DNA of 64,000 nucleotides from an uncultured Candidatus Saccharibacteria bacterium (GCA_964356915.1 CAYHJF010000001.1:77743-141742); one strand, 5' to 3'; positions 1,397-28,887 are shown, counted from the stretch's first letter. A program made the numbers and translations. The notes: generated from the letters alone by a model not told the origin.

Positions 1397-4254
1397 AGTA
1401 CGATATTTACAAGCTTATTACCCACAATAATAATATTCTTCGGTTCTTGCCCATTTATATATTTCTTAATCTGCTCGCTTGAAAGCGCGCGCTCTTTCAT
1501 CTCCTGTTCGGTAATAGTTGCGGCAACTTCAATAATCTCACGCATCTTACCATTAACCTGAATCACGAGTTTGACAGAAACATCATGCGTTAGCGCCTCA
1601 TCGTAAGTTGGCCACATACTCTTATGAATTGAGTCTTTCTCGCCGAGCATCTCAAAAAGCTCGTCAGCGACGTGAGGAGCGAGCGGGGCGAGAAGCTTTA
1701 GAAAATCTTTAAGATCTTTTTTACCAACAATCCGACCACCCTCTTCAAACGTGTTGAGACAAATCATAAGTGCAGAAATCGCCGTATTAAATTGAAGCGA
1801 CTCCATATCTTCACTCACTTTCTTAATTGCCTTTGCAATCGCACGCTCCGCTATCTCATCGGATTCACCATCGATAACGCATTCCTTAAAATCCCATACT
1901 CGGCTCAAAAATCGTACCATGCCCCGAATGCCTGTATCTTGAAAATCTCCTCCCTCCGTCAGCGGTGCCATAAAAGCCAAATACATGCGCAGTGCATCTG
2001 CTCCGTACACACGCAAATAATCGTCGGGGTTTATCACATTGCCACGAGACTTTGACATCTTCGCTCCATCTTTCGTAATAAGTCCATGTGCGCGAAATTG
2101 CTTGATTGGTTCACCGCCAGACTCTTTTGCAAAATCAACAAACCCAAGATCGTGCAGCGCCATCGAAACAAAACGAACGTACAGAAGATGAAGTACTGAA
2201 TGTTCCGCACCACCAATATACGAGTGAACGGGCGCCCATGTGCGAGCACGAGACTCTGATACAAATTCTTTTTTATTACTTGGATCGAGATAACGTAAGT
2301 AATACCACGCAGAATCTAAAAACGTATCTGAAACATCTGTTTCTCGGCGCGCCTTACCTCCACACTTCGGGCACGTCGTTTCATAAAACTCCGGAAAGTT
2401 CGCGAGCGGTGCTTTATCTGTTCCCGTCGGACGAAATTCTTTTACATCAGGTAACAACACAGGCAAATTTTCCTCCTTCTCTGAAATCCATTCTTTACAC
2501 GAGTCACACCAAATCATCGGGATTGGTGGTCCCCAATAACGCTGTCGAGAAATAAGCCAATCACGAAGACGATAATTTGTCTGTTGCTTCCCCTTAACTT
2601 TTTCTGTAATTTTCCATTTTGCTTCTCTCGAACTCATCCCATCAAACTCTCCTGAATTTGTCAGTATGCCATCTCCGGAATATATTTCTCCTAAAACCAA
2701 ACGTCGAAATCCAAGAAGATGATTTTCATCCTCCATTTTTTGCAAAACCTCATCTTTTGTCAGCCACTCGATAGTAAAATTTCCTTTTTCATCATGTTGG
2801 AGATTTTCTTCAACTCGCTCATCTCCTTTCAGCCGAAAATAAAGACTAGTCACCTCAATATTGCGCGCGACATTCTTTGAAAACGCAAAGTAGTGGTGAT
2901 GCATGAGCTCTGACTTTGCCACAAACTCTAGTTGCGTATACCCCGTTTCTTCTTGAATCTCACGGAGTGCTGTTGCTACCTCATCTTCACCCTCTTCACG
3001 CCCCCCACCAATAAACAGCGTCCCGCCAAGTTTTGACCCCCAGTTCAATGTTAAAAATTTCTTATGCTTTGGATCCTCAACAATAGCGACAATACTCCTG
3101 CGATGCTGTTCGTCCGGCATTATCTTCCCTGTCTCTGGCTCAATGACCAACGCAATAGGAAGTTCAAACTTCTTTGCAAATTCAAAATCACGCTCATCGT
3201 GTGCTGGCACTGCCATGATCGCGCCTGTACCATATCCGCCAAGTACATAATCCGCGACCCAAACCGGAATCTGCTTATCAGTCGCAGGATTGATCGCATA
3301 GATACCACTAAAAACCCCTGTTTTTTCTTTTCCGAGAGCCAAACGCTCCTCTTCTTTTCCACCAAGGCTCTTCGTGATGTATGCCCTTACTTCGTCGGGT
3401 GCCTGCCACCCAATATCAAGCCAAAATTTTGCAGTCTCTGGCGAGATAACAAGAAAAGTTGTGCCAAAAAGTGTATCGGGGCGTGTCGTAAATACATCTA
3501 CCGAATGTTTGCCGTCTTCTTGTCCCGGGATACCGGTGAGTGGAAATGTGATAAGAGCACCCTCTGATTTACCGATCCAATTACGCTGAGCAGTTGTAAT
3601 TCGCCCATCCCAATCAATATGATCGAGACCATCTAAAAGTCGTCCGGCGTATTTCGTAATTTTGAAAAACCACTGCTCTAATTCTTTTTGAATAACCTCT
3701 GTTCCACATCGCTCACATTTTCCAGCGATCACCTGTTCATTTGCGAGTACGGTCAAACACTTCGGGCACCAATTGACCGATGCTTTTTTTCGATACGCAA
3801 GCCCCGCCTTAAAAAGCTGAATAAACAGCCACTGTGTCCAGCGATAATATTCGGGGTCATACGTCTCGAGTTTTTCGTCCCATGCAAATGCATTGCCAAT
3901 CTCATGCAACTGACGATAAAAATTTTCCTCAGTGCGTAGAGCAAGTTTTTTTGGATGCTCCCCAATCTTAATGGCGTAATTTTCTGAATTGATACCAAAT
4001 CCATCAAGTCCCATTGGCTGAAACACATCATGTCCCTGCATTCGCTTAAAGCGTCCGTATATATCAACTCCCGTAAATGTGCGCACACCTCCAATATGCA
4101 ACCCCTCCGCGGATGGATAGGGGAACATCATGAGATTATAAAAAGGCTTCTTGGGATTATCTAGATCCGGCTCGTACAAACGGTCTTGCAACCACCGCTC
4201 GCGCCACTTTTTCTCAATCTTTTTAAAATCGTACGCCTTCATGAATTCTTTCAT
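1393..4254 (-). CDS. leuS: leucyl-tRNA synthetase, with an inserted Nudix domain
   Basis: HIGG-type class I motif, TTRPDTLFG editing motif, GTGAIMAVPAHDERDFEFA, NSGEFDGM, RLRDWLISRQRYWG and KMSKS all present; 953 aa; extra ~150 aa carries a Nudix box. Confidence 0.93.
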   Translation of the reverse strand: MKEFMKAYDFKKIEKKWRERWLQDRLYEPDLDNPKKPFYNLMMFPYPSAEGLHIGGVRTFTGVDIYGRFKRMQGHDVFQPMGLDGFGINSENYAIKIGEHPKKLALRTEENFYRQLHEIGNAFAWDEKLETYDPEYYRWTQWLFIQLFKAGLAYRKKASVNWCPKCLTVLANEQVIAGKCERCGTEVIQKELEQWFFKITKYAGRLLDGLDHIDWDGRITTAQRNWIGKSEGALITFPLTGIPGQEDGKHSVDVFTTRPDTLFGTTFLVISPETAKFWLDIGWQAPDEVRAYITKSLGGKEEERLALGKEKTGVFSGIYAINPATDKQIPVWVADYVLGGYGTGAIMAVPAHDERDFEFAKKFELPIALVIEPETGKIMPDEQHRRSIVAIVEDPKHKKFLTLNWGSKLGGTLFIGGGREEGEDEVATALREIQEETGYTQLEFVAKSELMHHHYFAFSKNVARNIEVTSLYFRLKGDERVEENLQHDEKGNFTIEWLTKDEVLQKMEDENHLLGFRRLVLGEIYSGDGILTNSGEFDGMSSREAKWKITEKVKGKQQTNYRLRDWLISRQRYWGPPIPMIWCDSCKEWISEKEENLPVLLPDVKEFRPTGTDKAPLANFPEFYETTCPKCGGKARRETDVSDTFLDSAWYYLRYLDPSNKKEFVSESRARTWAPVHSYIGGAEHSVLHLLYVRFVSMALHDLGFVDFAKESGGEPIKQFRAHGLITKDGAKMSKSRGNVINPDDYLRVYGADALRMYLAFMAPLTEGGDFQDTGIRGMVRFLSRVWDFKECVIDGESDEIAERAIAKAIKKVSEDMESLQFNTAISALMICLNTFEEGGRIVGKKDLKDFLKLLAPLAPHVADELFEMLGEKDSIHKSMWPTYDEALTHDVSVKLVIQVNGKMREIIEVAATITEQEMKERALSSEQIKKYINGQEPKNIIIVGNKLVNIVL

Positions 4255-4310
4255 GCTATGGGAAAAAACACTTCAAATCAAATGAAAAACCCCGTCAAAG
4301 ACGGGGGTGA

Positions 4311-5156
4311 CTAATCTAAAAGCATCATAGCGACAAGAGTATGAACGCGCCGAGCAAATGTAGGAACATCTTCATGCTCCAAAATATCGATCGGATGACC
4401 AAATTCAAGCGTGAGACGTGCGCCAGATTTGAGGCGCAAAAGAGAACCTTTGGGGAGCGCTTTATGCGCGCCGGAAAGTGCGAGTGGCACGATCGGGAGC
4501 TTTGCCTCTTTGGCAATCGCAAAAGGTCCCTTCTTGAATTCGCCAAGTCGCCCATCGTGCGAGCGTGTTCCTTCAGCAAAGAAAATGAGATTGACCGTCG
4601 GATCTGCTTGTACTGTGGCACGGATTGCCGCCATTGATTGTGCATGATCTGCCCGATCAATGATTGCCTGCGCACTCACCCGTGCAAGCGCTCCGACAAT
4701 CGGGTACGAAAGTACCTCTCTTTTTGCAACAAACCGCGCAAATGGAATTGTAGCGACAAGAAGCAAAACATCGAGCACGCTCTGATGATTTACCACGATC
4801 ACATGAGACCGCGACCAATCAACGCGATCATATCCGATGACCCGAACATCGATCCCTGCGCGTTCCAAGATCCATGGCGCCCAAAATCGTCGTACAAGAC
4901 GCCAATTGTATCGACTGCGCGTACGATCGCGCCACGCGCGGTCTCCCGCATAGACGCGCTGACACTCTGGATATTCGCGATGCCCTGTGCAAACAGGCGT
5001 ATGTCGCCTTAGTACTCGTATCGCACGTCTACCAATAACGATAGTCCGCCAAAACGCCGCGAGAACGATATAGGTATTACGAATAGCATTGTATGGGTGT
5101 CGAAGATATTGACCGACCGTCCATACAGGATACTTTGCATACGTCAGTGCGTTCAC
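4311..5156 (-). CDS. 1-acyl-sn-glycerol-3-phosphate acyltransferase-like (LPLAT family)
   Basis: FAEGTRS motif, N-terminal TM and a PlsC-like HxxxxD region; true start may be internal. Confidence 0.55.
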   Translation of the reverse strand: MNALTYAKYPVWTVGQYLRHPYNAIRNTYIVLAAFWRTIVIGRRAIRVLRRHTPVCTGHREYPECQRVYAGDRAWRDRTRSRYNWRLVRRFWAPWILERAGIDVRVIGYDRVDWSRSHVIVVNHQSVLDVLLLVATIPFARFVAKREVLSYPIVGALARVSAQAIIDRADHAQSMAAIRATVQADPTVNLIFFAEGTRSHDGRLGEFKKGPFAIAKEAKLPIVPLALSGAHKALPKGSLLRLKSGARLTLEFGHPIDILEHEDVPTFARRVHTLVAMMLLD

Positions 5157-5211
5157 ACGCGACTCCCTTCATAAGAAGAACGATTACCCTGTTCTTAGCA
5201 CGTCGCGCAAA

Positions 5212-6051
5212 TTACGCAAGCCGAAAAAGTTTTGTAGCATTCTCTGTCGTCGCGCGCGCTACCTCTTCATATGAAATACCGCGGAGCTCCGCTACTTTTT
5301 TTGCTATCTCTCGCACATACAATGGCTCGTTGCGCTTACCTCGATACGGCACCGGTGAGACATAAGGTGCATCCGTCTCAACCATAATCCGATCGAGTGG
5401 AGATTTGGTCAGGGCATCATCATAGTCACGCGCAAAGGTAATGACTCCTGTAAACGACAAATGAAATCCTAAATCTAAAAACATCTTGGCGTCTTCCCAT
5501 GAACCCGCAAAAAAATGAATCGTCCCACCCGCCTCATCGGCTTTTTCCTCGCGCAAAATTGGCGCGAGATCATGATACGCGTTTCGACAATGAATAATCA
5601 TCGGTTTTTTTACTTCGCGCGCAAGCTGAATCTGACGACGTAATGTCTCGTGCTGCTTATCTCGCTTGTCGTCCGTCTCGCCTGTCCGAAAATAATCGAG
5701 TCCACACTCTCCGATCGCTACCGTCTTTGAATCAAGCGCGAGTGTTTTGTAATAATCAAAATCAAATTCTTCTGTGCGCGTATCAAATCCCGGTACATTG
5801 TCTTCGCCGATTTCCTTGGCATCAACATGAAGCTCGGTCAGATGAATCGGGTGAAGCCCGACTGCCGCCCATACTCCGTCATCATATTTACGCGCATATT
5901 CAAGGGCACGTCGTGACGTACTTGCCTGCGACCCAACGAGAATCATCCCCACACCTCCCTCATGAGCTCGCGCAATGACCTCTGGGCCGTCCTCTTTAAA
6001 CGCATTGAAATTTACATGCGCGTGGATATCGATAAGTTCCCAATCTCTCAT
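5212..6051 (-). CDS. TatD family metal-dependent DNase/hydrolase
   Basis: IDIHAHVNF N-terminus, ETDAPY motif, ~279 aa. Confidence 0.85.
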   Translation of the reverse strand: MRDWELIDIHAHVNFNAFKEDGPEVIARAHEGGVGMILVGSQASTSRRALEYARKYDDGVWAAVGLHPIHLTELHVDAKEIGEDNVPGFDTRTEEFDFDYYKTLALDSKTVAIGECGLDYFRTGETDDKRDKQHETLRRQIQLAREVKKPMIIHCRNAYHDLAPILREEKADEAGGTIHFFAGSWEDAKMFLDLGFHLSFTGVITFARDYDDALTKSPLDRIMVETDAPYVSPVPYRGKRNEPLYVREIAKKVAELRGISYEEVARATTENATKLFRLA

Positions 6052-11318: not shown

Positions 11319-13253
11319 CTACTCGCGCACGGCAGCACCATTCACAACCGCTTCAGGATCGTTCCCAATGTCCGTATTGATCTGATTTGTCGGTTGTAAG
11401 AAAAGTCGACCGGTAAATGAGTCTTCAGCACGAAACGATGCTGCGGAAATAAGTTGTGGCGTAGAATCAACTTGCGGGAGTGATGGCTTGATACCTATTT
11501 GAAACGTTACCTCGCGTGGCTGATTTACATATCCAGTGCCTGCGGGAATTGTGCCGGGCAACCATACAAGTTCACCGGTCGTCTGCTTATACTGAAGTCG
11601 CTCCTGACTTGGAACAACAACATTTTTCCACGATACGTATGAAGGCAACGTCGCCTTCACCTCAACATTCTTTAAATCGCTATATGCATTCGCAATGGAC
11701 CATACAACTGTATAGGTGGTCTCAAGACCAACACGAGGAGGCAATGGTCCTGTATTTTGAATGCTTTGCCCAAAATAATATCCGTTTTGTACAAATCGTG
11801 CGCGCGTAGCAACTTTGTACGCCTTTTCAAATACACCGGACAAATCAACTCCTTGATATCCTGATGGTACTTCGGTCGTATGAATACGAGACTTGAGTGT
11901 AATAACAAAATCCTTATCACTCGGTGAAGTAATAGGAATATCTTTTAATAAGAGTATGCCGAAATCAAATTCACCACTTGCGCCCGGTTCAACAACAGAA
12001 AGTGCCGGTACACGCCCCGGGACCCATCGAAGTGCGTTGCGAGACTGATCATATTCGCCAAGAGTACTGGAAAGCCTCCTCAAATCGAGTGCCTTTCCAT
12101 CGAGCACAACTTCAACTTCCACATTATGAACGGCTACCGGCAAATTGTTGCGCCATCGCACCGTCCCTCGGAGTTCATCTCCCGCCGTAACCACGCCTGG
12201 CTCTTGTTCCCCCTGACTCAATCCAACCGCGACAGACAAGAGCGATGAATTAACGGCATATGTTTCTGACACTGTATTAAACGCAATCCATGAATCTTGC
12301 GCTCGATCATATAAACCAACGCGCGCATGAAATGTTTCTGGATTTTCGCTTGGTTTAATCTTTCCTCGGAGCGTAACGATGAACTCTCCGCTTGCGGGCA
12401 AATCTCCAATCTTCCACACATTATTACCTTGTTCTGGCGCAGGGGATGCGTCTGCATATTCAAACGAATCCGGATACTCAACCATCACATACATACCTCG
12501 AAAAACATTTTCTGCGCTTGATGTTACATGTAATTTGATTTCAGCCTGCTGCCCACCCTGTAATCCTTGTGGGATATCAAACTGAATTCCTAGCGATGTC
12601 GCATAAATTTTTGATTCATAGGTAACATCTTTTGAAAACCGCGCCGAGGAATCTTGGGGTCGATACTCGAGAGAAACGCGACCTCCTACAATACTATCCT
12701 TGGGCCCAAATACAATTCCTTGAAATATTTCTTCACTCACCGCCTCCGGTCCGAGCGTCTGCAACTCGCGCTTTTCTCGCTTGAGGCCAGTTTTAGAAAA
12801 TTCTCCTACAACCGGTTGAGTGCCGTTTGGAAATTCAAAGACGAGCACGGCATTTTCCAGCGGCGTTTTATTGCCATTTTTATATGTCACACGCCACGCA
12901 ACTTTTCTACCCGCAACGATCTCTTCTCCTCCTTCAACGGAAATAGAAATATTTTGTAACGTATCATGCCCTGGTTTAAATAAATTAAAACCACCCGCCG
13001 TCCAAAATAAATATCCAAAAATACCAAGTAACATTACAACTCCGCCGCCGATCCCCCAACGTATGATTGATCGGCTTATTCGCTTTTCGCGCATATCCTC
13101 TGGAGGTTGAGCTTCTTGATACTCATGTTCTTGTTCGTGCGACCACGCACCTGAAACATCTGCTCGATGTTTATCAAGTTGTGGTTCTTCATACCTCCGA
13201 TCAAAGCGTTCGTTCTTTCGAAAGAGACGCTTCTGTAAATCATCAATTCCCAT
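11319..13253 (-). CDS. large membrane-anchored surface protein with repeated beta-sandwich (DUF11/CARDB-like) domains
   Basis: 644 aa; cytoplasmic N-terminus, single TM (GIGGGVVMLLGIFGYLFW), then repeated ~100-aa beta-rich units. Confidence 0.5.
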   Translation of the reverse strand: MGIDDLQKRLFRKNERFDRRYEEPQLDKHRADVSGAWSHEQEHEYQEAQPPEDMREKRISRSIIRWGIGGGVVMLLGIFGYLFWTAGGFNLFKPGHDTLQNISISVEGGEEIVAGRKVAWRVTYKNGNKTPLENAVLVFEFPNGTQPVVGEFSKTGLKREKRELQTLGPEAVSEEIFQGIVFGPKDSIVGGRVSLEYRPQDSSARFSKDVTYESKIYATSLGIQFDIPQGLQGGQQAEIKLHVTSSAENVFRGMYVMVEYPDSFEYADASPAPEQGNNVWKIGDLPASGEFIVTLRGKIKPSENPETFHARVGLYDRAQDSWIAFNTVSETYAVNSSLLSVAVGLSQGEQEPGVVTAGDELRGTVRWRNNLPVAVHNVEVEVVLDGKALDLRRLSSTLGEYDQSRNALRWVPGRVPALSVVEPGASGEFDFGILLLKDIPITSPSDKDFVITLKSRIHTTEVPSGYQGVDLSGVFEKAYKVATRARFVQNGYYFGQSIQNTGPLPPRVGLETTYTVVWSIANAYSDLKNVEVKATLPSYVSWKNVVVPSQERLQYKQTTGELVWLPGTIPAGTGYVNQPREVTFQIGIKPSLPQVDSTPQLISAASFRAEDSFTGRLFLQPTNQINTDIGNDPEAVVNGAAVRE

Positions 13254-20914: not shown

Positions 20915-21269
20915 GGGGACGCTAGGCCTCGACGAGGAATCGTTTTCATTGAAAATCAGGCAAGAGCACGCTCGCTCATCTCTTTCAAAACTGTGTGAGC
21001 ATAATAAGTGCAAACTTATTTAACCGCCAACCGGCGATGGCATTTGCCTAGTCGCGGCGTTCTCTCACTTCGCTAGACGAAGTGAGCATCGGTCCGCAAT
21101 AGTCAGGTGAGCGGAATACCGGTGTTATAATCCCAGACTAGCGTGATGTGATGCTCGGTAGCATCGCGCGAAACTAATCGAGCAACTTCTTAAGATTCGT
21201 CTTGAGTACGCCTGTATAAATTTTTAGTGAGTCCATCTTCGCATGTGGGTTCGATTCCCACCGTCTCCA
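20915..21269 (+). ncRNA. ssrA: tmRNA (SsrA), ~355 nt
   Basis: Lies directly downstream of smpB. The 5' GGGGACG pairs with 3' CGUCUCC to form the acceptor stem. UCGACGAGG near the 5' end is tmRNA-like. The T-arm is GGGUUCGAUUCCCAC. An internal tag ORF begins GCA AAC (21010-21051) and reads ANLFNRQPAMAFA*. Confidence 0.7.
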
Positions 21270-21288
21270 CTGACAACACGACCCGCTT

Positions 21289-21318
21289 TTATGGCGGGTT
21301 TTGTGTTGGCAGTTGTCG
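21289..21318 (+). terminator. intrinsic terminator after tmRNA
   Basis: acccgc-ttttatg-gcgggt hairpin followed by TTTTGTGTT. Confidence 0.55.
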
Positions 21319-21387
21319 AATGAGTTGGGAATCGAACGCATGCCGGGGGCATGCGCGGCTCCGCACTAAGCGAAGCGCAGAAGGAGG

Positions 21388-21404
21388 ATTCCCACCGTCT
21401 CCAC
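21388..21404 (+). repeat. direct repeat of the tmRNA 3' terminal 17 nt (candidate att core)
   Basis: ATTCCCACCGTCTCCAC at 21254-21270 is repeated exactly at 21388-21404; an inverted T-arm fragment (gggaatcgaac) lies between the copies. Confidence 0.6.
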
Positions 21405-24437: not shown

Positions 24438-25532
24438 ATGTTGGACTACGGAAACACGCGTGTCGGAATATTCTTTACAGGCCTCTTTTTTCTTTTTCTG
24501 GGAGGCATTGTTATCTATCGCCCCCAACTCATGGCAACGCCAACACCGCCGAAATCATATATCCCAGCTCCTCCAATCATAGAAACCGCGCCAATCTCAA
24601 AAACTGAGACGCCAAAAACAGAGACACCTCACCCACCTAAATCTCCTGCAACGCACGCTACAGAAACTACATCAACAACAACGGTAGCCACTACATCACC
24701 AACAACAAGCACGTCTACTCCTCTTGTTACAACAGAACTTCCTCAAGTCACTCTGAAGACTCAACCTGAAACCGTAATAACTGGTGGACTTCAATTTTCA
24801 TCACAAGTCTGGCAAGGAGTTATTCGCATCACAGGAAGCGTTGTTTTTTCACCATGGACAACTCTAACTATCAAACCTGGAACAAAAATTATCTTTGAGA
24901 AAAAACCTGATATCGCGGGCACGGACTGGACCGATAATGCAGATGCGTACACCAAAGATCACAACGACCCGACAGGACGAAGCGGATATCGTCTATCGCA
25001 TTACAGCATCACGGGCACGATCACCGCGATCGGCACAAAAGAAGAACCAATCATCTTTACGTCTGCCGAAGAAAAACCTGACTATGCGGATTGGGACCAA
25101 CTCATACTCTTAGAAGGTAGTATTTTAGATCATGTCGAGATCTCGTATGCACACAATGGCATTCTCACATATGGTGACAACGTCACGATAAAGAATAGTA
25201 AAATTCAAAGTTCGCTTTGGAGCTGTATCGATCTTTTCTCAACAGGAAACATTATTGAAAATAATGAAATTTTTCACTGTTGGCACCAGGCAATCGGCAT
25301 TAAAAAACAAGGACAAAATACTATCAAAGATAATCTCATTCATGATGTCTGGCTCGGGATTAATTGTGAAAATGGCGCAAACCCAACCATCACCGGCAAC
25401 GCATTTCGCGCAGCCCCTCAAAATAATACTTGCCAAGTTGGAGGAGATAATACAATCCTTGAAGCACCTCCTGACTCGCTTGGTGGCACATATGGTGGGG
25501 TACTAATATATCCGACACAAAAACAAAACTAA
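24438..25532 (+). CDS. secreted protein with Thr/Pro-rich linker and right-handed parallel beta-helix repeats
   Basis: N-terminal TM/signal; PTPPKSYIPAPP...TTSTTTVATTSPTTSTSTP linker; repeated N-x-I/V-x-N units (NVTIKNSKIQ, NIIENNEIFH, NTIKDNLIHD, NPTITGNAF) typical of PbH1 repeats. Confidence 0.6.
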   Translation: MLDYGNTRVGIFFTGLFFLFLGGIVIYRPQLMATPTPPKSYIPAPPIIETAPISKTETPKTETPHPPKSPATHATETTSTTTVATTSPTTSTSTPLVTTELPQVTLKTQPETVITGGLQFSSQVWQGVIRITGSVVFSPWTTLTIKPGTKIIFEKKPDIAGTDWTDNADAYTKDHNDPTGRSGYRLSHYSITGTITAIGTKEEPIIFTSAEEKPDYADWDQLILLEGSILDHVEISYAHNGILTYGDNVTIKNSKIQSSLWSCIDLFSTGNIIENNEIFHCWHQAIGIKKQGQNTIKDNLIHDVWLGINCENGANPTITGNAFRAAPQNNTCQVGGDNTILEAPPDSLGGTYGGVLIYPTQKQN

Positions 25533-25580: not shown

Positions 25581-25608
25581 TTGACAAAAGTGTGTTTTAG
25601 TGTATAGT
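25581..25608 (+). promoter_or_regulatory. near-consensus sigma70-type promoter
   Basis: TTGACA (25581-25586), 16-nt spacer, TATAGT (25603-25608); GAGGAG SD at 25635-25640, 9 nt before the ATG at 25650. Confidence 0.6.
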
Positions 25609-25649
25609 GGTCGCAACGTTCATTCCCAGAAGAAGAGGAGACTTTACCC

Positions 25650-25913
25650 ATGTCACGTCGCAACAGACACCGCCCCTGCGCTCACGGATGCGGGCACTTG
25701 GTCGCCTCAGGCGACCGCCACGCCACGGGCCACTGCCCGCCCAAGCGTGGTCGCCGTTCGCGCGACAAGCATCACTGGATGGGTGACGGCAGCATCGTCG
25801 GCATGAAGGAGATCGGCGTCGGCGCGGATGTCGGCACGCGTGGCGTTCCGGTCACCGGTGTCGGTGGCGGAAAGGCCAAAAGCCACCGCGTCGCCAAAGC
25901 CAAGACCGCCTGA
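25650..25913 (+). CDS. small basic Cys/His-rich protein encoded in GC-rich foreign DNA
   Basis: 87-aa ORF (MSRRNRHRPCAHGCGHL...HCPP...), ~65% GC versus ~45% host; bounded by a consensus promoter plus SD upstream and hairpins downstream. Confidence 0.4.
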   Translation: MSRRNRHRPCAHGCGHLVASGDRHATGHCPPKRGRRSRDKHHWMGDGSIVGMKEIGVGADVGTRGVPVTGVGGGKAKSHRVAKAKTA

Positions 25914-25994
25914 GACCAACCGCCTCGGGACGGCTTCGCATCGTGCGGAGCCGTCCCACCCCCCACTCTTCATCTTTATAGATATCTTTGTTTG

Positions 25995-26027
25995 AAAACC
26001 TCGTCCCAGACGAGGTCGTTTTTTTAA
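25995..26027 (+). terminator. intrinsic terminator
   Basis: cctcgtc-ccaga-cgaggtcg hairpin followed by TTTTTTT; a second hairpin (gcccct/aggggc) at 26040-26058. Confidence 0.6.
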
Positions 26028-26055: not shown

Positions 26056-26653
26056 CTACTTACGAATACGTGTGAGAAATTCGAGCGATTCTAAACGCAT
26101 CCGTTGTTGATATGAAACTGGTAAACCAAGGGCGTGATGCGAGAGTGCTGCAACGGAATATGCTAAAAATTGATGCGGGACGTTACCTTCAACAATCCTA
26201 CGCATATGAGTCTCGCTATCAAGGCCACGATGAAACGTCGTTGAGTATGAGTCTGCAATAATACATCCTATGAACTCAACCCTATCAAAGGGCGTTAGAC
26301 GCTCTGCGCCTCCAAAGCGATCTACAGCATCAAACGCGAGAGCAATGCCTTCGGCAAAACGCTCTCTCTTCGCCTGTCATAAGATCACGCAGTCGCTCAT
26401 CGACCTCTTCATTAAATATGCCAGCCCGTGCAGGATGAATGAGATACCACTCATTTGGCACAAAAGATTCAGCAATCTCAACGGGCCCCGAGAATCGCAA
26501 AAATGCATTTAATGCATACACGATACCTTCAAGATATTGTTGCTGCTCGTTTTGCACTCGAAACTCACGCATCCGAGCATCAACAACAGCATTAAAGCCC
26601 CTTACGCTTTCTGAGAGATTCGCTTCTGATATTTCAGGTGTGGCGAGTAGCAC
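26056..26653 (-). pseudogene. frameshifted gene of unknown function (two frames joinable at a CT-repeat)
   Basis: A 107-aa ORF ends at TGA 26330. A second reading frame, offset by one nucleotide from the first, is open from 26376 down to the stop at 26056 and encodes a protein-like sequence (...AKRERFAEGIALAFDAVDRFGG...LTRIRK*). The frames overlap at gctctctctt (26361-26370). Confidence 0.45.
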
Positions 26654-26790
26654 GTAACCTCCATCAAAGAACGTTTACTATAAAATATACTAACTTATGT
26701 TAAAAGTCAATGATTTATATGCGCCCAACTATCTCCCCCTCCGTGCATCATTCTTTCTAACCTTACTCACTATTCAGCCCCCAAAATGTA

Positions 26791-26819
26791 TTGACTTTTA
26801 GTAAAAATAGTGTTATAAT
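26791..26819 (+). promoter_or_regulatory. consensus sigma70-type promoter
   Basis: TTGACT (26791-26796), 17-nt spacer, TATAAT (26814-26819); AGGAGG SD at 26857-26862, 6 nt before the ATG at 26869. Confidence 0.65.
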
Positions 26820-26868
26820 GAATCCAGAAACGTGGCTACAAAAACGCCACCAAAATAGGAGGACCTTG

Positions 26869-27495
26869 ATGAAGACTTGGATGCTGCTGATGGCGCTCGT
26901 GCTCGTACCCTGCTGGACAAACGCCGACGAAGGCGGCCGCGCCGAACCTACATGGATGGAAGAAGTGCGTGGTGCAACGCCGATGCCGAAGATCTGCAAG
27001 CTCATGCAGGACAGCGACATCGAAGGCGTCGAGCCTCATGTCGCCAAGAAGGTTGCGGAAGGTCTCCTCACAGAGATCCTGCGGGCCGACAAGATCGTCG
27101 ATCGCATCTGCGACATGAGCGGTGGCGAGCAGATCGACTTCGCTGACGGCGAGATCGTCATCGCCGAAATCGGAGAGTGGCTGACTCTCGCCAACCTCCA
27201 GCCGAGCGACATCGGTGTATCAACCGCGGAATTGCGCGAACTGCTCAAGACGAACATCGCTCGCAACATCGCGCGATACCGCGAGCTCCACGCCAAAAGC
27301 GAGTGCACGAACGCCGACTGCTCCACTTTCTACACGGGGATGGCCCAAGGAGCGCTCGATCGCCTGCACTTCACCAAGGAAGACGTCGGACTCACTCAAG
27401 ATGACGTAGTCATCTTCGAGCTGACGACTACCACAACGACAACCGCCATGACGGCCAGCAGCACGACTTCGACTACGCTCGTCTCGTCCAACTGA
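26869..27495 (+). CDS. secreted protein with poly-Thr C-terminal tail, encoded in GC-rich foreign DNA
   Basis: 208 aa from the ATG after the SD; signal peptide MKTWMLLMALVLVPCWTNA|DEGG; C-terminus ELTTTTTTTAMTASSTTSTTLVSSN; ~60% GC; the track ORF 26791.. extends upstream in-frame, but the SD supports 26869. Confidence 0.5.
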   Translation: MKTWMLLMALVLVPCWTNADEGGRAEPTWMEEVRGATPMPKICKLMQDSDIEGVEPHVAKKVAEGLLTEILRADKIVDRICDMSGGEQIDFADGEIVIAEIGEWLTLANLQPSDIGVSTAELRELLKTNIARNIARYRELHAKSECTNADCSTFYTGMAQGALDRLHFTKEDVGLTQDDVVIFELTTTTTTTAMTASSTTSTTLVSSN

Positions 27496-27526
27496 CCACG
27501 ACGACACAACAAGGTTTGAGCAAACC

Positions 27527-27560
27527 TGATCAGCTCCCCTGCAACATTCCGTTGCAGGGA
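27527..27560 (+). terminator. intrinsic terminator
   Basis: cccctgcaac-attcc-gttgcaggg hairpin followed by TTTTTTAT. Confidence 0.65.
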
Positions 27561-27659
27561 TCTTTTTTATAAATATATTCGAAAAAAATAAAAACCGGAG
27601 AATATCCTCCGGCGATCTACGTGATTTCTTATACTGAAATTACGAAGTTACTTTGCAAC

Positions 27660-28220
27660 TCATGCACTGACATCGACAAATCTTCCTCTCGTAGCATCAA
27701 GCGCACGCTCATACAGATGATCTGCAATACCTCCAAGGGCACGTTCAGTTCGTCGATATGAGCCCGTCGGAGCGATTCCTCCATGAGAGATATTGGAATG
27801 TATTTCAAGAATCCTTCGATCTATAGCCCATCCAACAAATGGCAGTCGATCTACGTCAGCACCATAAAGAGAAACGCCCCGATTAGGCAACAACTCTCTC
27901 AAACTTCTAACAGATTGTTCTGAAGTGATAATTTCAATCGATACCCCTCTCGCTACTGCCTGCTCAAAAGCTCTCTTAAGCCTATCTACTTGGTAAAGCA
28001 CGTGATAGCACCCATAGGAACTACATACGATAACGATCGTTCGACGTGATTGCAAAATATCGGCAGAAAGCGCTGAAAGCGCGGCTTGGGGTGTTTCTCG
28101 ATACCCAAAAACCAAACGACTCTCCCATAACACTCGTACGATACCGACACATATACCTAATACACCTATGACCATAAGGAAAATGAGGGTCATTGGAACC
28201 TCCGTGATCAGATATACCAC
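27660..28220 (-). CDS. hypothetical membrane-anchored protein (possibly DUF218/SanA-like)
   Basis: 186 aa; N-terminal TM; weak resemblance to YdcF/SanA-type fold. Confidence 0.35.
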   Translation of the reverse strand: MVYLITEVPMTLIFLMVIGVLGICVGIVRVLWESRLVFGYRETPQAALSALSADILQSRRTIVIVCSSYGCYHVLYQVDRLKRAFEQAVARGVSIEIITSEQSVRSLRELLPNRGVSLYGADVDRLPFVGWAIDRRILEIHSNISHGGIAPTGSYRRTERALGGIADHLYERALDATRGRFVDVSA

Positions 28221-28275: not shown

Positions 28276-28887
28276 ATGGAAACATTGATACAAAAGCCTC
28301 GCATTAACCATCAAATACGAGTCCCGGAAGTTCGGGTCATTGGAGAGGACGGCTCAAACCTCGGGGTTCAGCCAACCGCCAACGCCCTTGAACTCGCACT
28401 GGCTTCAGGCCTTGATCTTATTGAGATCTCGCCAACCGCACAGCCACCGGTAGTTCGTATCATGGATCGCGGCAAATATCAGTATCAACTCGATAAAGAA
28501 GCTCGGCAGGCACGTAAAAAATCGAAAGAAATTGAAATCCGCGGCATTCGAGTACGCCTTGGAACAGGCCTCAACGACCTGATTCTAAAAGCAAAAAAGG
28601 CTGAAGAGTTCCTATCGGATGGAGACCGAGTACAGATCCAGATGACGCTTCGTGGCCGAGAGAAAGGGATCAATAAGGATTTCGTTCACGAACGTCTTAA
28701 AAAATTATTGGAAGCGATAACCGTACCGTTCAAAGTAGCCGAAGCACCTAAAAAAGGACCGCGAGGACTTCTTATCACAATCGAACCAGACCACAATGGC
28801 AAAAACAAACAAATCAGTACTGAAAAGAATCAAGGTGACCAAAACGGGCAAAATCATGAAGCGAAGCCCGCACCAGAATCACTTTAG
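28276..28887 (+). CDS. infC: translation initiation factor IF-3 with C-terminal extension
   Basis: INHQIRVPEVRVIGEDGSNLGV and IMDRGKYQYQ motifs; 203 aa; low-complexity tail overlaps the rpmI start. Confidence 0.85.
   Translation: METLIQKPRINHQIRVPEVRVIGEDGSNLGVQPTANALELALASGLDLIEISPTAQPPVVRIMDRGKYQYQLDKEARQARKKSKEIEIRGIRVRLGTGLNDLILKAKKAEEFLSDGDRVQIQMTLRGREKGINKDFVHERLKKLLEAITVPFKVAEAPKKGPRGLLITIEPDHNGKNKQISTEKNQGDQNGQNHEAKPAPESL

Follow-up and report, generated by a model that had tools for sequence, protein, structure and literature searches.

The window, that is, the whole stretch of 64,000 nucleotides (64 kb) that was analysed, derives from a member of the Patescibacteria (CPR), as judged from its infC gene, whose nearest relatives are 67-70% identical and are found in Patescibacteria MAGs. 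Two GC-rich units, referred to as cassette 1 and cassette 2, lie downstream of smpB and the tmRNA gene, and the infC-rpmI-rplT cluster begins at 28276. Cassette 2 is located within the variable interval that extends from the tmRNA gene to infC. The features of this interval are as follows.

20915-21404, plus strand: the tmRNA gene (20915-21272) together with a duplication of its 3' end
25581-26022, plus strand: cassette 1, with a promoter (TTGACA-16-TATAGT) at 25581-25608
25650-25913, plus strand: cassette 1 ORF encoding an 87-aa basic, Cys/His-containing protein, 68% GC
25927-25957, plus strand: GC-rich hairpin of cassette 1
25998-26016, plus strand: terminator of cassette 1
26059-26653, minus strand: gene of host-like GC content between the cassettes, with a frameshift near 26363-26376
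26791-27568, plus strand: cassette 2, a complete one-gene unit in which promoter, SD, ORF and terminator are all present
26791-26819, plus strand: putative sigma-70-type promoter of cassette 2 (TTGACT at 26791-26796, a 17-nt spacer, TATAAT at 26814-26819)
26826-26868, plus strand: predicted 5' UTR of ~43 nt, its start placed from the position of the -10 box
26869-27495, plus strand: cassette 2 ORF, 208 aa, by direct reading of the sequence
27537-27568, plus strand: intrinsic terminator of cassette 2 (9-bp GC-rich stem, 5-nt loop, T6)

The match of TTGACT-17-TATAAT to the consensus suggests that this element functions as a promoter. A TG at 26811-26812 provides an extended -10 element, and the promoter ends 50 nt upstream of the ATG at 26869. 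When both strands of the window were scanned for promoter-consensus sites matching in at least 11 of 12 positions, four were obtained: one intragenic site, the tmRNA promoter (12/12) and the promoters of cassettes 1 and 2. The number expected by chance, estimated by first-order Markov simulation, was 1.44 +/- 1.27. By its agreement with the consensus, the cassette 2 promoter is most likely among the strongest of the region. The 5' UTR includes a small hairpin formed by GTGGC (26832-26836) and GCCAC (26846-26850), and the SD sequence AGGAGG (26857-26862) is spaced 6 nt from the start codon. The terminator stem-loop, CCCTGCAAC-ATTCC-GTTGCAGGG, occupies 27537-27559, has 6 GC pairs in its stem and is followed by the T6 run. 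The promoter boxes, the SD, the 208-aa ORF and the terminator were all found where the original prediction had placed them.

The exact cassette 2 protein has been deposited under the accession MEK7642881.1, where it is described as hypothetical and assigned to a "Patescibacteria group bacterium". The deposited model is 225 aa long and starts at an ATG at 26818, which is inside the -10 box and has no SD. The 208-aa start is preferred because AGGAGG lies upstream of it and the signal peptide begins at its first residue.

The cassette 2 ORF has a GC content of 59% compared with 44% in its surroundings, and the values at the three codon positions (GC1/GC2/GC3) are 0.57/0.445/0.77. Across 61 host ORFs, among them genes for ribosomal proteins and translation factors, GC3 averages 0.391 +/- 0.038 and does not exceed 0.477, which places cassette 2 about 10 standard deviations outside the host distribution. 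The comparison of codon usage with the host (GC3 of 0.77 vs. 0.39 +/- 0.04) thus bears out the earlier description of the unit as compositionally alien. Cassettes 1 and 2 are the only GC spikes in the 64-kb window. The GC-rich block of cassette 2 is trimmed nearly to the ORF, rising within ~10 nt of the ATG and falling ~40 nt past the stop codon, and the promoter, the 5' UTR and the terminator are AT-rich and host-like. In both cassettes C3 exceeds G3, a bias of the same sign as the strand skew of the host. A search for direct or inverted repeats flanking cassette 2 found none.

In AT-rich genomes a GC spike often marks an RNA gene. The possibility was considered that cassette 2 is a structured non-coding RNA, or else an artefact in the form of an assembly chimera or a contaminant. 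Compared with shuffled controls, folding is stronger for the full transcript (z = -4.35) and for the second half of the coding sequence (27183-27495, z = -3.7), which contains a palindrome at 27259-27286. However, the first half of the coding sequence has a folding z of +0.6, there is no Rfam match even at E <= 1, and the sequence has a strong three-base periodicity with GC3 well above GC1 and GC1 above GC2. Two further points against an RNA gene are the completeness of the signal peptide and the alignment of a remote homologous protein over 185 residues. Cassette 2 and both of its borders are 100% identical to the window in five independent assemblies, three of them replicates of the Hainich groundwater well H41 (0.1 um fraction) and two of them Logan runs. 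This identity excludes a chimera for cassette 2. The original prediction had named an assembly contaminant as a way in which it could be wrong, and this is contradicted by the finding of 0 differences across cassette 2, including both junctions. Moreover, searches of phage DNA (50,697 records) and plasmid DNA gave no match, and scans of viral contigs found none. An artefact or a non-coding RNA is consequently regarded as very improbable.

The first 19 residues of the 208-aa protein constitute, by inspection, a signal peptide (MKTWMLLMALVLVPCWTNA|DEGG) made up of M-K, then TWMLLMALVLVPCW, then T-N-A|D. It shows what was required of a Sec signal, namely a basic residue in the n-region, an h-region of 10-15 hydrophobic residues and small residues at -3 and -1. 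The LVPC sequence departs from the canonical lipobox. Once mature, the protein is 189 aa long, contains 4 Cys and is acidic, with a pI of 4.5; its C-terminal 24 residues are Thr/Ser-rich and the protein ends in TTTTTTTAMTASSTTSTTLVSSN. AlphaFold2, run without an alignment, modelled the protein as all-helical apart from a single small hairpin, with a pLDDT of 58 in the full-length model and of 66 (pTM 0.59) in that of the mature domain, and a fold search with both models, full length and mature, matched no known fold. The credible Sec signal peptide, the acidic helical core and the Thr-rich tail of the earlier description were thus all recovered. Internal three-fold repeats were not significant (p = 0.2-0.5).

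A host beta-helix (NosD-like) surface protein encoded at 24438-25532 is anchored in the membrane at its N-terminus and contains a Thr/Pro-rich linker that resembles the Thr tail of the cassette 2 protein in composition. Derivation of the tail from this neighbouring gene was rejected, as nucleotide similarity is absent.

The cassette 2 protein is a near-orphan, with one remote relative among ~15 billion proteins. When 5.8 billion proteins were searched by a word index, the 208-aa query matched only itself. With phmmer, a search of 1.84 billion representatives detected a 255-aa hypothetical secreted protein (P0003) with an E value of 4.8e-5 and 28% identity over 185 residues. The blocks common to the two proteins include LANLQPSDIGVSTAELRELL / IANIEPKDISKTPTELRDLL and FTKEDVGLTQDD / FTTEELGLTSEE. 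P0003 is encoded on an 836-bp contig (ERZ27245685:k141_637078) of 58.5% GC and has a bacterial SD and an N-terminal signal peptide; its flanks, just 31 and 37 nt long, are GC-neutral. Compared with the cassette 2 protein, P0003 has a longer N-terminal region, no Thr-rich tail and only one of the four cysteines of the mature domain. It is itself an orphan, with only a self match in the word-indexed search of 5.8 billion proteins. The SD, the signal peptide, the GC content and the flanks of P0003 would fit a family that is native to mid- or high-GC bacteria.

The same phmmer search of 1.84 billion representatives also detected a five-fold Pex14_N repeat protein (P0002, E 1.2e-6), in a match confined to residues ~15-55 of the cassette 2 protein. 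Residues ~30-75 are similar to one of the three-helix repeat units of P0002 and have P..CK.M.D...EG in common with it, and the local score was 44 vs. 21 +/- 4 for shuffled sequences (p = 0.0005). The Pex14_N profile (PF04695) did not match the 208-aa protein at E <= 1. The similarity is limited to one short segment and may be convergent. No family in Pfam, PHROGs, PADLOC or NCBIfam matched the 208-aa protein above threshold. The YaaA / DUF328 profile (PF03883) scored 16.1 bits compared with a gathering cutoff of 29.6, and this sub-threshold match was rejected because it is absent from P0003. A PDB profile match to the designed repeat protein 4ozs was likewise rejected; its score adds up four weak domain matches for which P0003 is responsible, and nothing was obtained with the single sequence. 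The sequence and fold searches agree with the earlier statement that the 208-aa protein has no recognisable homolog, apart from the remote relationship to P0003.

The original prediction had placed the cassettes in a tmRNA-adjacent accessory region, and this region is real. The distance from the end of the tmRNA gene to the start of infC is 7.0 kb here, compared with 1.2 kb and 3.4 kb in contigs L005 and L002, the two relatives with a tmRNA gene upstream of infC. The genes of the interval have no counterpart in L002, L003 or L005, which are the three closest relatives, except for a divergent member of the cassette 1 family in L003. No relative of cassette 2 was found in L002, L003, L005 or L058, which are distant relatives with IF3 ~67-70% identical. 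Nor were integrase, transposase or prophage genes found near cassette 2, and a PHROG search with the island proteins gave only one holin match (E = 0.077) and no structural genes.

The 3' end of the tmRNA gene is duplicated. Its last 18 nt, GATTCCCACCGTCTCCAC, are present at 21253-21270 and again, 134 nt downstream, at 21387-21404, so that 2 copies were found where 0.01 were expected. Between the copies lies a GC-rich remnant of 116 nt, which contains an inverted T-arm-like piece at 21326-21340. The arrangement is typical of integration into ssrA, the tmRNA gene, and looks like a scar left by a lost integrative element, and the duplication around a GC-rich remnant suggests that foreign DNA has arrived at this site before. 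The search for a third att copy at the border of the island was negative. The host genome encodes the competence protein ComEC, and genomic islands and horizontal transfer have been documented in aquifer Patescibacteria (PMC12455944). In a separate observation, 21345-21376 in the remnant was found to have a 32-nt imperfect inverted match (25/32) to 25933-25964 in the hairpin that follows the cassette 1 ORF.

Between the cassettes, the frameshift that had been noted in the gene of host-like GC content is real, as it is the same in all replicate assemblies. The broken gene, which has a promoter-like site and a terminator of its own, is split into a 107-aa piece and ~105 aa read in a different frame. 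The reconstructed protein of ~199 aa had no family match.

The cassette 1 product has a pI of 11.4 and no signal peptide, and it had no match in Pfam, NCBIfam or the PDB. Its family was found in four Patescibacteria lineages, represented by the window, L055, L056/L057/L058 and L003. A protein (P0004) on the Logan contig L055 (631-1085) is 61% identical to the 87-aa protein; its context is different, although the design, TTGACA-17-TATAAT followed by a GC-rich ORF and a hairpin terminator, is alike. The third member, on the metagenome contigs L056-58 (in L058 at 12100-12570, minus strand), was recovered with a degenerate DNA motif for the invariant HAxGxCPPKRGR block. The fourth and more divergent member, of 72 aa, lies in the GC spike of L003 (3638-4300) and was matched by the profile with an E value of 5.5e-18. 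The L003 unit (3638-4290) contains two ORFs under one TTGACA-17-TAATAT promoter. The first encodes a three-helix membrane protein of ~95 aa (GC3 0.67) and has no canonical start codon after the SD; the second is the cassette 1 homolog.

The proteins of the family are 72-88 aa long and basic and have an N-terminal Cys/His cluster, with C-x3-C-x-H...C-P-P-K present in three of the four, and every member has a near-consensus promoter, an SD and a hairpin terminator. The number of synonymous codon changes was 15-19 in frame compared with 2-10 in the shifted frames, an excess which indicates that cassette 1 encodes a real protein under purifying selection. In all three lineages for which the context is known, the gene is upstream of infC and on the infC strand, at a distance of 2.4 kb in the window, 6.7 kb in L058 and 5.7 kb in L003. 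In L003 the 10 kb that precede infC contain no tmRNA, and none was found in the fetched stretch of L058. Since this synteny persists at IF3 identities of 64-72%, cassette 1 is old and inherited and is not a recent import. The description of the two cassettes as alien expression units therefore fails for cassette 1.

The unexpected result is that this neighbouring cassette belongs to a conserved family that stays GC-rich. The GC3 values of the four members are 0.77, 0.92, 0.87 and 0.67 compared with 0.34-0.46 in flanking genes, and the synonymous substitutions in the family remain G/C. The GC-richness of cassette 1 is therefore maintained in an inherited gene. The CDS-only folding z is ~0, which gives no evidence of a specific RNA structure.

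Gene callers were observed to overlook the cassette 1 ORF or to call the antisense strand. Furthermore, all of the differences among the five replicate assemblies fall within 25943-25990. Two contigs begin at 25943 and 25945, in the loop of a 13-bp hairpin. A scaffold is interrupted by an N-gap at 25944, and a further contig carries four substitutions at 25965-25990, beside a poly-C run. These differences could be due to coverage drop-out at the hairpin or to real microheterogeneity.

The original prediction had suggested that the cassettes form a paired system, in which cassette 2 supplies a secreted effector or toxin and cassette 1 a small partner, immunity protein or regulator. The units are 750 bp apart, have a design and a compositional anomaly in common, and encode oppositely charged proteins, the mature 208-aa protein having a pI of 4.5 and the 87-aa protein one of 11.4. 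However, when co-occurrence was tested across the cassette 1 loci, the homologs in L055, L056-58 and L003 were found without any relative of cassette 2 in the 1.5-20 kb fetched around them. The cassettes are separate transcription units with their own terminators and with an opposite-strand pseudogene between them, and PADLOC, Pfam and NCBIfam show no toxin or immunity signal. In addition, the 208-aa protein is predicted to be exported, whereas the 87-aa protein lacks a signal peptide, so the products would occupy different compartments. The prediction had itself listed, as evidence that would count against it, ORFs that never co-occur and that each have an inherited homolog; the first half of this was observed. 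The absent co-occurrence appears largely to refute the pairing, which is now quite improbable.

The best reading of cassette 2, given about an even chance of being correct, is that a moron-like accessory gene, complete in itself and encoding a secreted or surface protein, was acquired horizontally. Acquisition is favoured by the GC1/GC2/GC3 values, which fit an unameliorated gene from a genome of ~60% GC, and by the absence of a counterpart from L002, L003, L005 and L058. It is also favoured by the integration scar at the tmRNA gene, by the presence of ComEC in the genome and by the context of P0003, which is not AT-rich. No donor or close homolog of cassette 2 was found in the searches, so the transfer is proposed from its composition and phyletic absence. 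Several observations weaken this reading. An import would be expected to bring donor flank, and the GC-rich block is trimmed to the ORF. Cassette 1, which has the same design and is 750 bp away, is inherited yet GC-rich, so that GC-richness is an unreliable clock of arrival. The excess of C3 over G3 matches the strand skew of the host, which is weak evidence of long residence, and there are no genes of prophages, integrases or transposases nearby. With respect to the origin of the two cassettes, therefore, the earlier proposal of horizontal acquisition is retained as the best reading of cassette 2 and is abandoned for cassette 1.

Alternatively, cassette 2 could be a native gene whose coding sequence, synonymous sites included, is kept GC-rich by selection or biased repair. 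The cassette 1 family provides the parallel, with a GC3 of 0.67-0.92 despite its IF3 divergence and with synonymous changes that remain G/C, and in L003 the GC-rich unit extends to a second ORF, that of the small membrane protein. Cassette 2 has a similar layout, in which an AT-rich consensus promoter, a consensus SD and an AT-rich terminator surround an ORF that alone is GC-rich, and the C3 bias is common to both cassettes of the window. However, no cassette 2 relative was found in any related locus, translation genes do not have such a GC3 bias, and P0003 is not in an AT-rich context over its 31 and 37 nt of flank. Moreover, there is no known mechanism, and the CDS-only folding z is ~0. A native gene locked in this state is possible, although on the unlikely side.

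Slightly more tentative, and doubtful at present, is the broader proposal that cassette 1, cassette 2 and the two-ORF unit of L003 represent an undescribed class of Patescibacteria genes. Its members would be small, autonomous and very strongly promoted units that are kept GC-rich at synonymous sites, with a GC3 of 0.67-0.92 in genomes of 42-48% GC and across divergences at which synonymous sites should saturate. If such a class exists, it implies a selective force or a repair bias that acts on particular transcripts. One candidate force is protection of the mRNA against AU-specific RNases; the most speculative is optimisation of codons or signals for expression inside a GC-rich partner cell.

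Returning to acquisition as the preferred reading, cassette 2 can be compared with known mobile or accessory units. The phage moron concept is reportedly that of Juhala and Hendrix. In the review by Cumby, Davidson and Maxwell (2012, PMC3594210), morons are defined by a promoter and a terminator of their own and by a GC content that sets them apart from adjacent genes; the envelope is a frequent site of action of moron products. Cassette 2 is similar in having its own promoter, as judged by the consensus match, upstream of a single gene, its own factor-independent terminator and a composition unlike that of its neighbours (z ~10), and in being absent from the same position in related genomes. 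It differs in that it lies in a chromosomal interval of a CPR bacterium and not between phage or prophage genes, and cassette 1, with the same design, is vertically conserved, which is not expected of morons. Like ssrA-linked islands, cassette 2 lies downstream of ssrA in a variable interval with an 18-nt repeat of the 3' end. In this case, however, the repeat encloses only 116 nt and not the 7-kb interval, there is no integrase, and the cassette 1 family tracks infC rather than the tmRNA gene in L003 and L058. An integron cassette, by comparison, is a promoterless ORF with attC, whereas cassette 2 has its own promoter; its 3' hairpin is a plain terminator without a GTTRRRY core pair by eye, and there is no integrase nearby.

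A sequence of events can be proposed for the expression of cassette 2, each step of which we infer from the sequence. The near-consensus, extended -10 sigma-70 promoter would direct strong, probably constitutive, monocistronic transcription from ~26826, and the hairpin and T6 run would end the transcript. The consensus SD would allow efficient initiation at 26869 of a coding sequence that may retain the codon usage of a donor of ~60% GC. The 19-residue signal peptide would then direct Sec export, with cleavage by signal peptidase I after Ala19. The released 189-residue protein is predicted to be acidic and mostly helical and could form as many as two disulfides; its extended Thr/Ser-rich tail may carry glycans. 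Its site of action would be the cell surface or the medium, and contact with the partner or host cell or its envelope is the most plausible setting.

If cassette 2 was acquired, it would be one more strain-specific accessory gene in a CPR genome and a cleanly delimited moron-like unit outside a phage, encoding a protein whose family has two members among ~15 billion sequences. As a secreted protein of a contact-dependent organism, it is a candidate surface or host-interaction factor. Cassette 1 shows that 'foreign' calls based on composition can mislead here, because it has the same design and is inherited yet GC-rich. If the maintenance of GC-richness were general, it would suggest that synonymous sites of ultra-small bacteria are under a constraint that has gone unrecognised, and it would affect the scoring of horizontal transfer in these organisms.

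Two minor observations concern other loci. In L007, a more distant contig labelled as Saccharibacteria, there is a 360-nt spike at 5121-5480 with 70% GC on a 53% background, in which no convincing ORF and no Rfam match at the gathering threshold were found. Directly beside cassette 2, between it and infC, 27660-28220 on the minus strand encodes a 186-aa membrane-anchored protein with weak matches to PLD-like, NucT and DrmC nucleases (E 8e-4 to 0.06), and an ORF similar to it in size and position is present in L005.
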